Below, piece by piece: positions 59,698 to 64,000 of a stretch of 64,000 bases of DNA. The DNA comes from Betaproteobacteria bacterium. Lineage in GTDB: Bacteria; Pseudomonadota; Gammaproteobacteria; Burkholderiales; SG8-39. Each line of letters begins with the position of its first letter. Position 1 is the first letter of the stretch. The stretch is from assembly GCA_016713125.1 (NCBI GenBank), contig JADJPT010000007.1, positions 29,198 to 93,197 on the forward strand, in the 5' to 3' direction. The translations under genes were made by a program, and so were the position numbers. The notes beneath the pieces are model-generated. The model was not told the origin of the DNA. It saw only the letters and a list, made by a program, of their open reading frames with translations, and did not search any database.

Positions 59698-59770
59698 TCG
59701 AACTTTACTTTCTCGAACTCCGCTCCTGGAGCGGAGTTCAGGGAAGTTGGCTTGCCGGATCAGGCAAGCC
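59698..59770. repeat. REP-like extragenic palindromic element, copy 2, plus a second hairpin
   Basis: TCGAACTTT / TTTCTCGAACT direct repeats. A 25-nt perfect palindrome GAACTCCGCTCC-T-GGAGCGGAGTTC (59715-59739) shares a 16-nt core with 976-991. GGCTTGCC-GGATCA-GGCAAGCC (59749-59770) lies 18 nt past the downstream gene's stop. Confidence 0.6.
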
Positions 59771-59787
59771 ATACGGTGTGAAGCGCT

Positions 59788-60597
59788 TCAGCCCCCGCCC
59801 GGATACCAGGCCGCCGCGCGCTTCTCCCTGAACGAGGCCAGGCCCTCGGCGGCCTCTGCGGACTGACGCTTCTGCGCATGCTGCAGCACCAGGCGCTCGA
59901 AGGCGGCCTCGCCCGCTTCGCCGGCGAAACCGCCCCAGGCGAACTCGAGTGCGAGCTGCTTGGTCTGCGCGTTGGCCTCGGGCGCGTTCTGCAGCAGCGC
60001 CCCGACCACGCGCGCACCGGCGTCTTCGAGCTCCGCGGCAGGCACCACTTCATGCACCAGGCCGATGCGTCGCGCCTCGGCGGCGTCGAAGCGCTCGCCG
60101 GTCTGCGCATAGCGGCGCACCTGGCGCGCACCGATGGCGTCGGCCAGCTGCGGCAGGATGATGCCGGCCATCAGGCCCCAGCGGGTCTCGGCGATCGAGA
60201 ACTGGGCGTCTTCGGCGGCGATCACCACGTCGCAGGCCGCGGCGATGCCGGTGCCGCCGCCGAAGCAGCCGCCCTGCACCAGGGCCACGGTGGGCAGGGG
60301 CAGGGTGTTCAGCCTGCGCACCGCGAGCGCGGTGATGCGCGAGGCGTGCAGGTTCTCTTCGGCGGTGCCGCCGGCCACCGCGTTCAGCCAGCGCAGGTCG
60401 GCGCCGGCCTGGAAGTGGCGGCCGCGGCCGCGCAGCACCACCACGCGCAGGCCGGGCTCGCCGCCCAGCGCGTCCATCGCGGCGAGCAGGCCTTCGATGG
60501 TTTCGGCGTTGTAGGCGTTGTTCACTTCGGGGCGGTTCAGCGTGACATCGGCCACGCCGCGCGCATCCATGCTCCACAGCACGGCGGGTTCGCTCAT
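59788..60597 (-). CDS. enoyl-CoA hydratase (methylglutaconyl-CoA hydratase-like crotonase)
   Basis: ATG at 60597 (MSEPAVLWSMDARGVADVTLNRPEVNNAY...FQAGADL...VQGGCFGGGTGIAAACD). 269 aa. Confidence 0.75.
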   Translation of the reverse strand: MSEPAVLWSMDARGVADVTLNRPEVNNAYNAETIEGLLAAMDALGGEPGLRVVVLRGRGRHFQAGADLRWLNAVAGGTAEENLHASRITALAVRRLNTLPLPTVALVQGGCFGGGTGIAAACDVVIAAEDAQFSIAETRWGLMAGIILPQLADAIGARQVRRYAQTGERFDAAEARRIGLVHEVVPAAELEDAGARVVGALLQNAPEANAQTKQLALEFAWGGFAGEAGEAAFERLVLQHAQKRQSAEAAEGLASFREKRAAAWYPGGG

Positions 60598-60626
60598 CCG
60601 GTTCTCCTGATTGTCCTGTGCACGAT

Positions 60627-61922
60627 TCAGCGCTTGAAAAGCCTGCGCGCCGGGAAGGGCTGGGCCTGCGAACCCAGCGCCTCCTCGATGCGCAGGCCCT
60701 CGTTCCATTTCGCCATGCGTTCGGAGCGCGAGAAGCTGCCGACCTTGAGCTCCGGCACGCCCCAGCCAACCGCCAGGTGCACGATGCTGACGTCCTCGGA
60801 TTCGCCCGAGCGCGCCGAGACGATGGCGCCGTAGCCGGCCTGGCGCGCGGCCTCGACCGCGGCCCGGGTTTCGCTCACCGTGCCGATCTGGTTGGGCTTG
60901 ATCAGCACCGTGTTGCAGGCGCCGGCCGCGGCGGCCCGCGCGATGCGCTTCGCGTCGGTGCAGAAGTAGTCGTCGCCCACCACCTGGATGCGCGCACGCA
61001 CGCGCTGCGTGAAGGCGCGCCTGGCTTCGTGGTCGTCCTCGGCGAACGGGTCCTCGATCGAGACGATGGGATAGGCGTCCACCCAGCGCTCGAGCATGGC
61101 GCCGAACTGCCCGGCCGTGAGCGTGCGGTTCTCCAGCGCCAGCGCGTAGCGGTCCGAGCCGGGCTGGCGCAGTTGCGTGGCGGCGATGTCCAGCGCGATG
61201 GCCACGTCGGCGCCCGGCGCGAAACCCGCGTCCTCGATCGAGTGCACCAGTTCGGCCAGGCCTTCCTCGTTGGACTTGAACGAGGGCCAGTAGCCGCCTT
61301 CGTCGGCCACGCCCTGCAGCTGGCCCTTCTTCGCCAGGCGCGCGCCGGCGGCGTAGTACACCTCGGCGGTCCATTCCAGCGCTTCGGCGAAGCTGCCTGC
61401 ACCGGGGCACACGACCAGGTAGTCCTGCAGGTCGACGCGACCTCGCGCGTGTGCGCCGCCGCCATAGATCTGGATTTCGGGTACCGGCAGCGCGACGCGG
61501 CGCTCGCCGGCCAGGTGCTTCCACAACGGCACGCCGGCCGAGGCGGCGGCGGCGTGCAGGCAGGCCAGCGACACGGCGACGATGGCGTTGCCGCCCAGGC
61601 GCGACTTGTCCGGCGTGCCGTCGAGTTCCACCAGCGCCGCGTCCAGCGTCGACTGCGCCGCGCCATCCATGCCGCGCAGGCGCGCGGCGATGGCACCGTT
61701 CACGGCCTCGACCGCGCGCCCGACGTCCATGCCGCGCAGCGGCGTGCCGCCGTCGCGCAGATCGCGCGCCTCTCCGGCGCAGGTGGAGGCGCCGGCAGGC
61801 GCGATGGCGCTGCCCATCGCGCCATCCTCCCGCACCACTTCGGCCTCGACGGTGGGGCGGCCGCGCGAATCCCAGACGCGGCGGCCGCGCAGCGTGCGTA
61901 TTGCCGAGCCGGTTGCGTTCAT
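60627..61922 (-). CDS. divergent enolase-family paralogue
   Basis: ATG at 61922, overlapping the upstream stop (ATGA). 431 aa. Enolase metal/catalytic pattern retained (ADEGGYWP, ALDIAAT, SIEDPF, VGDDY, IKPNQIGT, ELKVGSFSRSERMAKWNE). Signature deviations: AGASTC for SGASTG and SARSGESED for SHRSGETED. Confidence 0.7.
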   Translation of the reverse strand: MNATGSAIRTLRGRRVWDSRGRPTVEAEVVREDGAMGSAIAPAGASTCAGEARDLRDGGTPLRGMDVGRAVEAVNGAIAARLRGMDGAAQSTLDAALVELDGTPDKSRLGGNAIVAVSLACLHAAAASAGVPLWKHLAGERRVALPVPEIQIYGGGAHARGRVDLQDYLVVCPGAGSFAEALEWTAEVYYAAGARLAKKGQLQGVADEGGYWPSFKSNEEGLAELVHSIEDAGFAPGADVAIALDIAATQLRQPGSDRYALALENRTLTAGQFGAMLERWVDAYPIVSIEDPFAEDDHEARRAFTQRVRARIQVVGDDYFCTDAKRIARAAAAGACNTVLIKPNQIGTVSETRAAVEAARQAGYGAIVSARSGESEDVSIVHLAVGWGVPELKVGSFSRSERMAKWNEGLRIEEALGSQAQPFPARRLFKR

Positions 61923-63014
61923 GTCCGCAGTTCCCTGTTCCAGGTGGTGCGCACCTCGGCCAGCGTGGCGGCCGGCGAGCGCAGCAGCGCGATCGCCGCG
62001 CGACGCCGTGTTGCGCGCCGCCTCGGTGGTGAGGTATTCGACCGGCGACTTGCCGTCGACGCGCGCCAGCAGCAGGCCGGGCAGCAGGGCGGCGGCGCGC
62101 GACTCCAGCGCCGCGCGCGGCTCCCAGTCCACGCCGGCCAGGTAGCGTTGCGTCAGCGCCTCGTAGGCGGCCAGGAAGCCCGGCGTCGCGGCCGGCGTCC
62201 ACAGGCACTTGAGCAACAGGTGGTTCAGGCAGAAGGCGAGATCGAAAGCCGGATCGCCGTACCAGGCACATTCGGCGTCGAGGAACACCGGCGCGTCGCC
62301 TTCGGGTGAGCGGCGGATCAGGATGTTTTTCGGGCTTACGTCGCCGTGCACCAGGGTGCGGCGGTTCGCGGCGGTGGTGTCGGTCAGCGCCTGCAGGCGG
62401 GCGGCCAGTTCCGGATGCGCGCGGCCGGTGGCCAGCAGATAGGGCTCCAGGCGGATGGCGTGGAAGCCGGCGTCGGTGGCGAAGCGCGCGGCGATCGCCG
62501 CGTCGCCCGCGGTGCGCGCGTGGATCCTCGCCAGCGCCTCGCCCACCGCGGCGGCGAAGGCCGCGTCGGCGCGCCCGGCGGCGAGTTCGGCTTTCCACAG
62601 CGGGTAGGCCGAGGGGTCCAGGTACTCCATGGCGAAGACGCCGGCCTCGTCCGCGGCCAGCACGCGCGGCACGCCACCGGGCAGCAGCACGGCCACGGTC
62701 TCCAGCCAGTCGCGCTCGTAGCGGTTGCGCTCCACCGGCGCTTCCCACAGCTGGGCCACGCGCAGGCGCGGCAGCGCGCGCTTCACGCACAGGCTGCCGG
62801 AGGCGAGGTCGACCTTCCAGATGTCCGAGGACACGCCGCCGGCCAGCGGCGCGGCGTGCGGCTGCTCCTGCGCGCCGACCAGACCGGCCGCGCGCAGGAA
62901 GGCGAGGATGGGGGCGAAGTCAGGCGCGGCAGGCGCGGCAGGCGCGGCGGCAGGCGCCGCGGGCGCAACAGGTGCGGCAGGCGCAGGCTGCGCCGGCCCC
63001 GGGGCGATGCTCAC
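61919..63014 (-). pseudogene. APH-fold small-molecule kinase (MtnK/choline-kinase-like) with an Ala/Pro-rich N-terminus, one frameshift as sequenced
   Basis: GTG at 63014 overlaps the pdxH stop (GTGA). GGVSSDIWKV, HGDVSPKNIL, DAECAWYGDPAFDLAF. The break at ~62005 restores ...AAIALLRSPAATLAEVRTTWNRELRT-TGA. Confidence 0.65.
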
Positions 63015-63659
63015 GGCGACAGGCGTTCGATCGTCCAGCCCTGCGTACCGCGCACGTAGCGCAGGCGGTCGTGCAGGCGGTTGGGCCGGCCCTGCCAGAA
63101 CTCCAGCGCCGTGGGGTGCAGACGGTAGCCGCCCCAGTGCGCAGGGCGCGGCGGGTTGTCGCCGTGGCGCTGTTTCGCCGACTCGAGCGCATCCTCGAGC
63201 ACCTTGCGTCCGGCCACCGGGCGGCTCTGCGCCGATGCCCAGGCCGAATGCCGGCTGCCCAGCGGGCGCACGGCGAAGTACCTCGTCGGACTCGCTGGCC
63301 GCGACTTTCTCCACGCGGCCCTCGACGCGCACCTGGCGCTCGAGTTCTACCCAGAAGAACACCAGGCAGGCCTGCGGATTGGCCGCCAGCTGCACACCCT
63401 TGGCGCTCTGGTAGTTGGTGTAGAACACGAAGCCCTCCGCGTCGAGCTCCTTGAGCAGGACGATGCGCGCGTCCGGCCGGCCGTCCGCGGTCACGGTCGC
63501 CAGGGTCATGGCGTTCGACATCGGCAACTGGTGCGCGAGCGAATCGGCCATCCAGCGCTCGAACAGCAGCAGCGGGTCTGCGGGGGCGTCGGCTTCGGCG
63601 AGTCCGGCGCGCATGTATTCCTGGCGCACCGCGGCCAGGTCGAGTTTGGCTGTGCTCAT
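63011..63659 (-). pseudogene. pdxH: pyridoxamine 5'-phosphate oxidase, one frameshift as sequenced
   Basis: MSTAKLDLAAVRQEY...MTLATVTADGRPDARIVLLKELDAEGFVFYTNYQSAKG... then (break ~63281) [19 protein letters not shown]...[27 protein letters not shown]... Confidence 0.8.
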
Positions 63660-63722: not shown

Positions 63723-64000
63723 ATGGGCGCAAGCGAGGGTGTGATCGACTACGGCAACGGCATCAGCGCGGTGGACGCGCGCTTCGAGCGTCCCCTGCAC
63801 AACGCGGTGCACCTCGTCGTGGAAGGCGGGCGTGCCGCGGTGATCGACACCGGCACCAGCCATTCTGTGCCCTTCGTGCTCGCCGCCTTGCGCGAGCGCG
63901 GCGTGGCACCCGAGCAGGTAGCTTACGTAATCCTTACGCACGTGCACCTGGACCATGCCGGCGGTGCGGGACAACTGATGGCGTATTGCCCGAACGCGCT
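63723..64000 (+). CDS. MBL-fold metallo-hydrolase, 5' part only (runs off the window)
   Basis: ATG at 63723, open to the window end. ...AVIDTGTSHS...ILTHVHLDHAGGAG contains the HxHxDH motif. Absent from the ORF track because no stop lies inside the window. Confidence 0.65.
   Translation, partial: MGASEGVIDYGNGISAVDARFERPLHNAVHLVVEGGRAAVIDTGTSHSVPFVLAALRERGVAPEQVAYVILTHVHLDHAGGAGQLMAYCPNA

Follow-up and report, generated by a model that had tools for sequence, protein, structure and literature searches.

We have identified a conserved two-gene cassette, encoding a small-molecule kinase of the methylthioribose kinase (MtnK) fold and a variant enolase, in a 64,000-nt stretch of a betaproteobacterial genome (Burkholderiales, SG8-39; GenBank assembly GCA_016713125.1, contig JADJPT010000007.1, positions 29,198 to 93,197). 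This stretch is hereafter called the window, and coordinates are positions within it unless a locus is named. The locus is a pdxH-led operon on the minus strand whose functional core is the cassette, with the kinase at 61919-63014 and the 431-aa enolase at 60627-61922. On the basis of sequence comparisons, the pair is a widespread, conserved and apparently undescribed unit built from two known enzyme families. An earlier note on this DNA had proposed that the kinase feeds an enolase-type eliminase to make an enol phosphate, and the near-absolute, translationally coupled linkage of the two genes across phyla supports that proposal. Our preferred reading, to which we assign a probability of roughly 0.55, is that the pair converts glycerate or a close relative to phosphoenolpyruvate (PEP) in two steps.

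A conserved kinase-enolase cassette

A pattern scan of species-representative genomes recovered at least 589 kinase loci, and the linkage counts given here refer to the best 80 of these. The variant enolase is found beside the kinase in every one of the 76 loci (76/76) that either have room downstream or carry the enolase elsewhere, and in the remaining 4 of the 80 the sequence stops no more than about 250 bp from the kinase. The 80 loci include members of the Alpha-, Beta- and Gammaproteobacteria, Acidobacteriota, Chloroflexota, Methylomirabilota and Bacteroidota, and the pair is found in Actinomycetota and haloarchaea as well. The order kinase-enolase is kept in nearly all of 29 relatives. 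The enolase lies upstream in 1/76 loci (L130, from an uncultured betaproteobacterium) and also precedes the kinase in Rhodococcus (L147) and Methylobacterium nodulans (L149); Haladaptatus has the normal order. The stop codon of the kinase overlaps a plausible enolase start in 60 of 68 loci, with a 4-nt overlap in 37, and some gene calls join the kinase and enolase domains, part of which may be frame-shift artefacts like the one in the window. This translational coupling, together with the joined gene calls, argues for stoichiometric co-function. Co-occurrence of the kinase and the enolase paralogue, which the earlier note had offered as a check on its proposal, thus extends across phyla, mostly with overlapping genes.

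The variant has the two-domain architecture of the housekeeping enolase (EC 4.2.1.11), with matches to Enolase_N (PF03952, 142 bits) and Enolase_C (PF00113, 278 bits), and scores 455.5-455.7 bits against TIGR01060, above the cut-off of 300. It is about 43% identical to the genome's own canonical enolase, which lies on contig 2 and scores 681.6 bits, some 200 bits higher. Across 61 related genomes the TIGR01060 scores are bimodal, with canonical enzymes at 645-700 bits and paralogues at 411-503 bits; the lower-scoring class is found only in kinase-holding genomes and always beside the kinase. Ten genomes of other classes and phyla have one enolase of each class apiece. In a maximum-likelihood tree, one branch with support of 100/98 parts 33 paralogues from 20 canonical enolases, including that of yeast, and on both this branch and the bimodal scores the window enolase falls outside the housekeeping clade. 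Sequences from different phyla are intermingled within the paralogue clade, a pattern suggestive of horizontal transfer. Every holder genome that was checked also encodes a canonical enolase, that of the window included, for which the earlier note had asked whether one existed. The variant is therefore always a second copy, almost always translationally coupled to one particular kinase, and the idea that the pair replaces the housekeeping enolase is ruled out.

Active-site residues, given in yeast numbering, were tabulated over 95 paralogues with canonical enolases in the same alignment. D246, E295, D320, K345, K396, E211, H159, Q167, R374, S375 and S39 are invariant in 95/95 paralogues, so that the variant, like the housekeeping enzyme, retains the three Mg ligands together with Lys345, Lys396, Glu211, His159, Arg374, Ser375 and Ser39. 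It differs from the housekeeping enzyme in a set of equally strict replacements: all 95 paralogues carry E168D, G209A, H373A, N155G, V346P and T397V, and 92 of the 95 carry S36A and L400F. Canonical enolases in the alignment have Glu168 and His373, whereas Asp and Ala occupy these positions in all 95 paralogues and in 6 further strains. Rhodococcus, M. nodulans, Paracoccus, Rhizobium and the archaeon Haladaptatus share the core set D168, A209, A373 and V/I397. In canonical enolase, E168 and H373 lie on the C3-hydroxyl side of 2-phosphoglycerate, and the part of the variant pocket that has changed is therefore the leaving-group side.

The residue table and the tree bear out the earlier description of this protein as a divergent enolase paralogue, with two corrections to its details. 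The statement that all metal ligands and the catalytic Lys and Glu are kept holds for the metal ligands, E211, K345 and K396; the second catalytic Glu, E168, is Asp. Two signature loops had also been described as altered. The His-to-Ala change in SARSGESED is a true family trait, present in 95/95 paralogues, whereas the Cys of AGASTC is confined to the window, where the codon TGC at 61779-61781 gives G41C in the Ser39 metal loop, at a position that is Gly in 95/95 relatives and in canonical enolases. This change is either a sequencing error or specific to the strain. A second subclade of variants, comprising the enolases of Rhodococcus, M. nodulans, Haladaptatus and the uncultured betaproteobacterium of L130, has S36 and S155 instead of A36 and G155. 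Separately, locus L145 (G030:C42:35500-37300) holds a third, very divergent enolase-like gene (152 bits) that is without K345, E211 and D320 and looks like a non-catalytic or repurposed enolase fold.

The kinase matches only APH (66 bits) and EcKL in Pfam, with no match to Gly_kinase (PF02595) or MOFRL (PF05161), and so stands outside these known glycerate kinase classes. Its family profile comprises 1,402 clusters at 50% identity (E <= 1e-30). Invariant in the family are the ATP-lysine of VCVKRA, the HGDxSPKN loop, the DAEC metal motif and a C-terminal RxDGKSPxEY block. An AlphaFold model of an intact orthologue has a pLDDT of 96.3, and its top Foldseek hits are methylthioribose kinases (TM 0.76-0.81, 15-17% identity); with the exception of one integrative MTNK-DHOM model, the top 15 hits are all MtnK chains (TM 0.72-0.81). 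PsiK follows MtnK in the ranking, and antibiotic and choline kinases come far lower (TM of about 0.5 or less for the antibiotic kinases). An MtnK-type fold with HGD...N and DxE motifs, as had been read from the sequence at the outset, is thus recovered by model and motifs together, although the best NCBIfam model for the kinase, MtnK itself (TIGR01767), scores only 57.8 bits against a cut-off of 275. Membership of the antibiotic kinases, which the earlier note had named as a ground for refuting its proposal, finds no support either in the Foldseek ranking or in the score of 20.1 bits against the APH(3') model NF033068, for which the cut-off is 205. On all three such grounds that the note had listed (a sole enolase in the genome, an antibiotic kinase, and a lack of conserved linkage), the outcome favors the kinase-enolase pair.

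The closest known relative of the kinase is accordingly MtnK (EC 2.7.1.100; PDB 2PYW and 2OLC), which is the nearest solved fold and the best PDB sequence hit and has the HGD...N catalytic loop and DxE metal motif in common with it. A PDB sequence search returned no solved structure for an orthologue of either the kinase or the variant enolase. Apart from the low identity, the window-family kinase differs from MtnK in being about 60 residues shorter and in its company: in the loci read it is always with the variant enolase and never beside mtnA or other methionine-salvage genes, none of which turned up in the annotated contexts or the neighbour Pfam tallies.

Proposed function and competing explanations

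The genes around the pair were surveyed for clues to its substrate, with tallies that are lower bounds since the gene finder still errs. All-against-all ORF clustering of the 80 loci and nearest-neighbour Pfam tallies gave no conserved third gene, and the recurrent extra partners are limited to 2-hydroxyacid dehydrogenases (in a minority of loci), FGGY kinases and transporters. The commonest extra neighbour is a D-2-hydroxyacid dehydrogenase, located within a few kb in about 19/80 loci. On two Rhizobium plasmids (L146, 4118-8948; L152, 5139-9960), the PEP carboxylase gene ppc, a CtBP-like 2-hydroxyacid dehydrogenase gene and the kinase gene stand in a row, with the variant enolase a few genes away in a VOC/cupin/Liv-type ABC cluster. 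Pyruvate kinase adjoins the pair in one locus. A LacI-controlled operon that begins with the pair and goes on with an FAH-family gene, SDRs and a sugar ABC importer occurs in Paracoccus seriniphilus, Roseibium aggregatum and a Rhizobium plasmid; in Paracoccus and Roseibium the order is LacI, then kinase-eno-FAH-SDR-sugar ABC. On a Burkholderia plasmid, genes for two UxuA-type dehydratases, SDRs, a lactonase and FAH come with the kinase, the enolase and a sugar ABC importer, and in Haladaptatus the context is an HpcH-type aldolase, MR/MLE dehydratases and SDRs. For both FAH proteins scanned, one from Roseibium and one from the Burkholderia plasmid, the best match is 2,4-didehydro-3-deoxy-L-rhamnonate hydrolase (342 and 426 bits, cut-off 500). 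One cluster representative (P0192, 720 aa) joins full-length UxuA (mannonate dehydratase) and kinase domains in a single protein, a Rosetta-stone tie of the kinase to sugar-acid catabolism.

On a plasmid of Azospirillum brasilense Sp7 (L153, 1939-8903), the genes ahead of the pair code for a PEP-mutase-family protein, an Fe-ADH, a TRAP transporter, a PhyH dioxygenase and a GntR regulator, a set that resembles phosphonate metabolism. In Ca. Intricatilinea (Chloroflexota; L137, 5954-7799), the genes immediately upstream of the pair encode a ComB-like 2-phosphosulfolactate phosphatase homologue and a ketopantoate-reductase-like protein. The two Rhizobium plasmids also have a divergent acyl-CoA dehydrogenase, 3-hydroxybutyryl-CoA dehydrogenase and ETF-QO set beside a LysR gene.

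The sugar-acid operons, the D-2-hydroxyacid dehydrogenases and the PEP-linked genes, for PEP carboxylase, pyruvate kinase and the PEP-mutase-family protein, make the sequence glycerate to 2-phosphoglycerate to PEP the most economical reading of these contexts. The chemistry, substrate and substrate stereochemistry that we infer for the cassette would be as follows. The ATP-dependent, MtnK-fold kinase would phosphorylate the 2-hydroxyl of a small 2-hydroxy acid with a beta-leaving group, most likely glycerate. The coupled variant enolase would then take the C2 proton via the retained Lys345 equivalent and expel the C3 substituent via the retained Glu211 equivalent, on the kept two-Mg site, to give an enol phosphate that would most likely be PEP. 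In the sugar-acid operons, the cassette would salvage the C3 acid left once a 2,4-diketo-3-deoxy-aldonate hydrolase or an aldolase has released pyruvate. The hemiketal of 2-keto-3-deoxy-gluconate was also considered as a kinase substrate and was dropped because its C2 has no proton for an enolase-type step.

Two known systems invite comparison with this model. The proposed passage from hydroxypyruvate or a sugar-acid fragment through glycerate and 2-phosphoglycerate to PEP resembles the glycerate 2-kinase and enolase step of the serine cycle, the glucarate/galactarate routes and the non-phosphorylative Entner-Doudoroff pathway (GckA/MOFRL or GarK with Eno), and the pair recurs by D-2-hydroxyacid dehydrogenases, ppc, HpcH-type aldolases, sugar-acid dehydratases and FAH hydrolases. 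It differs from these systems in that its kinase has another fold, most holders have a MOFRL kinase too, and its enolase is a dedicated variant. The other likeness is to the diketo-hydrolase branch known as Route III (KDP or KDF 4-dehydrogenase with an FAH hydrolase; Watanabe et al. 2019, PMC6336799), in view of the operons that unite the pair with SDR and FAH genes in Paracoccus, Roseibium, Rhizobium and the Burkholderia plasmid. FAH-type diketo-hydrolases release pyruvate and a 2-hydroxy acid, glycolate or lactate, and the described routes end in pyruvate and glycolate or lactate, without a kinase or an enolase (PMC6336799). In the operons described here, by contrast, a kinase and an enolase are present beside the FAH and SDR genes. 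By analogy, a 6-hydroxy sugar acid as hydrolase substrate would give a glycerate fragment, and the route may thus extend to glycerate.

Several observations weigh against a conversion of glycerate to PEP. The two residues contacting the C3 hydroxyl are invariably replaced, which argues for another substrate or another stereoisomer. A MOFRL glycerate 2-kinase is present in 23/32 holder genomes, the same rate as in non-holders, and GlxK-type kinases occur in four genomes only, none of them a holder; the possibility that the pair replaces a missing glycerate kinase is ruled out by the equal frequency of MOFRL in holders and non-holders. With a canonical enolase in all holders and a MOFRL kinase in most, the cassette looks redundant if its substrate is plain D-glycerate. 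The neighbours outside the pair are heterogeneous, pdxH and the kinase are both broken in the assembled window, and no published description or enzyme assay of the kinase-enolase pair was found in the searchable full-text literature. Since most holders have both canonical enzymes and the C3-side residues are altered, L-glycerate or some other beta-substituted 2-hydroxy acid is a serious alternative. The same two steps would then act on a substrate that the canonical enzymes refuse, whether L-glycerate (via L-2-phosphoglycerate), a different 3-substituted lactate (3-sulfolactate or 3-mercaptolactate, for example), or a C4 2,3-dihydroxy acid leading to a PEP homologue, and the pocket changes E168D, H373A, G209A and T397V would be adaptations to it. 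Strict conservation of the altered C3-side residues across bacteria and archaea is in keeping with such a substrate, as is the coexistence of the pair with canonical enolase and MOFRL glycerate kinase. The adjacent FAH is closest to the hydrolase of the L-rhamnonate pathway, whose 6-hydroxy analogue would yield L-glycerate, and in one Chloroflexota genome the ComB-like homologue lies near the pair. On the other hand, the partner dehydrogenases are D-specific 2-hydroxyacid dehydrogenases, the UxuA-type contexts and the UxuA-kinase fusion predict D-configured products, the ppc linkage favors genuine PEP, and the family-specific substitutions bring in no new charged residue able to bind sulfonate or phosphate. 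Taking these together, we regard a non-canonical substrate as somewhat doubtful.

A more conservative explanation would make the paralogue an ordinary 2-phosphoglycerate enolase isozyme, with a kinase that is regulatory, a protein kinase, or serves some other small molecule and is not a metabolic supplier. The score above the TIGR01060 cut-off and the retention of all essential catalytic residues fit this explanation, and a His373 variant of yeast enolase reportedly keeps part of its activity. It sits poorly with the translational coupling in 60/68 loci and the gene calls joining both domains, with the small-molecule kinases MtnK and PsiK as the nearest structural relatives of the kinase, and with the movement of the pair as a unit into unrelated catabolic operons; we consider it improbable. 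A kinase that supplies its coupled enolase with a 2-phospho acid, most likely 2-phosphoglycerate made from glycerate, is the explanation that we prefer.

The locus in the window

In the window, the cassette belongs to a string of four tightly packed minus-strand genes, as the earlier note had described: pdxH (pyridoxamine/pyridoxine 5'-phosphate oxidase; 63011-63659; PNPOx_N and PNP_phzG_C domains), the kinase, the enolase and a crotonase-family protein of 269 aa (59788-60597). The GTG start of the kinase at 63014 overlaps the pdxH stop in a GTGA (63014-63011), the kinase and the enolase overlap in an ATGA (61922-61919), and the crotonase ATG is separated from the enolase gene by 29 nt (60626-60598) that include an AGGAGA ribosome site. 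The motifs HGDVSPKNIL, DAECAWYGDPAFDLAF, AGASTC and SARSGESED that had been quoted for the kinase and the enolase were each located in the sequence. Upstream, a metallo-beta-lactamase-fold gene (63738-64000, plus strand) diverges from pdxH, and the order FBPase, SWIB, metallo-beta-lactamase, pdxH, kinase, enolase is syntenic in relatives.

This layout is real in its genes, its motifs and its overlaps. Two frame breaks had been overlooked, however, one in pdxH and one in the kinase, and the assembled kinase ORF runs past the ATGA. pdxH is split over two frames by an extra base in GACGAG-G-TAC near 63281 (site 63278-63287). Its N-terminal and C-terminal halves score 153 and 112 bits against NF004231 (model positions 1-100 and 95-190), no single intact frame in the assembled window matches the whole PdxH model (TIGR00558/NF004231), and an assembly-wide profile search returned these two pieces as the sole pdxH matches in the genome. 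In the kinase, the frame changes near 62006 (site 62001-62010) with loss of the invariant Val before RR, and the conserved C-terminus (RRAAIALLRSPAATLAEVRTTWNRELRT, up to the stop), the last ~28 residues, lies in the alternate frame together with the TGA of the ATGA overlap. In the assembly, the open frame of the kinase reads without a stop into the enolase, forming a 796-aa pseudo-fusion from the kinase GTG, and the whole open frame containing kinase and enolase is 1010 aa counted from the pdxH ATG.

pdxH and the kinase are each in a single frame in every relative compared. In the window, the out-of-frame parts are still conserved as protein, at 60-77% identity for the C-terminal half of pdxH and 54-67% for the kinase tail. 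Because these parts are conserved, because the window pdxH is the only one in the genome, and because the source assembly is 88% complete in 49 contigs, both frame breaks are most likely assembly errors, the one-base break in pdxH being either an assembly indel or a very recent loss. The alternative, which would concern this window only, is real decay, with pdxH and the kinase recent pseudogenes here, or a kinase-enolase read-through that is a genuine fusion. Both breaks do exist in the assembly, and the enolase has in addition its unique G41C at an invariant Gly. Against decay stand the same three grounds that point to assembly errors, and against a fusion, that read-through would remove two invariant C-terminal kinase helices. 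We therefore think it unlikely that either gene is truly broken or fused in this strain.

Outside the cassette, linkage is local. pdxH lies ahead of the pair only in Burkholderiales, in 19/80 diverse loci and in most close relatives, and it was given little weight as a functional clue (to 4-phosphohydroxythreonine/erythronate chemistry) because this linkage is confined to one order. The crotonase belongs to its superfamily by its ECH_1 match (PF00378, 167 bits), and its best NCBIfam model is gamma-carboxygeranoyl-CoA hydratase (229 bits against a cut-off of 426), a score too low to assign a specific function; it is described here as methylglutaconyl/carboxygeranoyl-CoA hydratase-like. It is probably co-transcribed in the window. 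Between the crotonase and the cupin gene of the RLP-cupin operon, which is convergent with the string, is a spacer of 117 nt that holds two adjacent palindromes (59707-59771 in total; inverted repeats at 59707-59747 and 59748-59771). The first has a 25-nt core at 59715-59739, GAACTCCGCTCC(W)GGAGCGGAGTTC, that recurs at 8 genomic sites within 3 mismatches, among them copies on contigs C1, C2, C3, C6, C10, C18 and C20, and several copies show compensatory stem changes; the reversed control gave 0 sites. The first palindrome is therefore a small dispersed family resembling repetitive extragenic palindromes (REP-like), and the shared REP-like element that had been noticed in the spacer is confirmed.

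The earlier note had gone further and united the kinase, the enolase paralogue, the crotonase and the RLP-cupin operon in one sugar-phosphate or methylthio-sugar salvage pathway with an MtnK-like kinase. The genes are physically close in the window and the kinase fold is indeed MtnK-like. However, of about 100 loci only 3 have a crotonase after the enolase (the window, the P0005 contig of one near relative, and G004), and RLP and cupin genes occur at no other locus examined. The kinase also falls far below the MtnK cut-off and is always tied to the enolase, never to mtnA-type genes, and the two operons are convergent with REP-like palindromes between them. Such a pathway is thus highly improbable, and the crotonase and RLP-cupin genes are unrelated neighbors only.

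Significance of the cassette

To our knowledge, enolase proper has so far been treated as a single-function family. If the pair acts as proposed, it would represent either a second function in the enolase family or, paired with an enolase of its own, a glycerate kinase of a fourth structural class. It is possible, and we suggest it tentatively, that the kinase-coupled clade is the first functionally distinct subfamily in the enolase family proper, acting on a 2-phospho acid that the housekeeping enzyme refuses; L-2-phosphoglycerate, made by an L-glycerate-specific MtnK-fold kinase, would be the most concrete candidate. A distinct subfamily would imply an undescribed route from a hydroxy acid to PEP at no net ATP cost, and thousands of genes now named 'phosphopyruvate hydratase' and 'aminoglycoside phosphotransferase family protein' would be misnamed.

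The pair is uniformly annotated as a glycolytic enolase and an 'aminoglycoside phosphotransferase', and metabolic reconstructions therefore miss a step, while resistance screens may over-call the kinase. Intact orthologues are available in cultured, non-pathogenic strains, where the function would be directly testable. In the organisms that hold it, the cassette may complete oxidative hexose or sugar-acid routes that leave a C3 hydroxy acid, by providing the final part that they lack.

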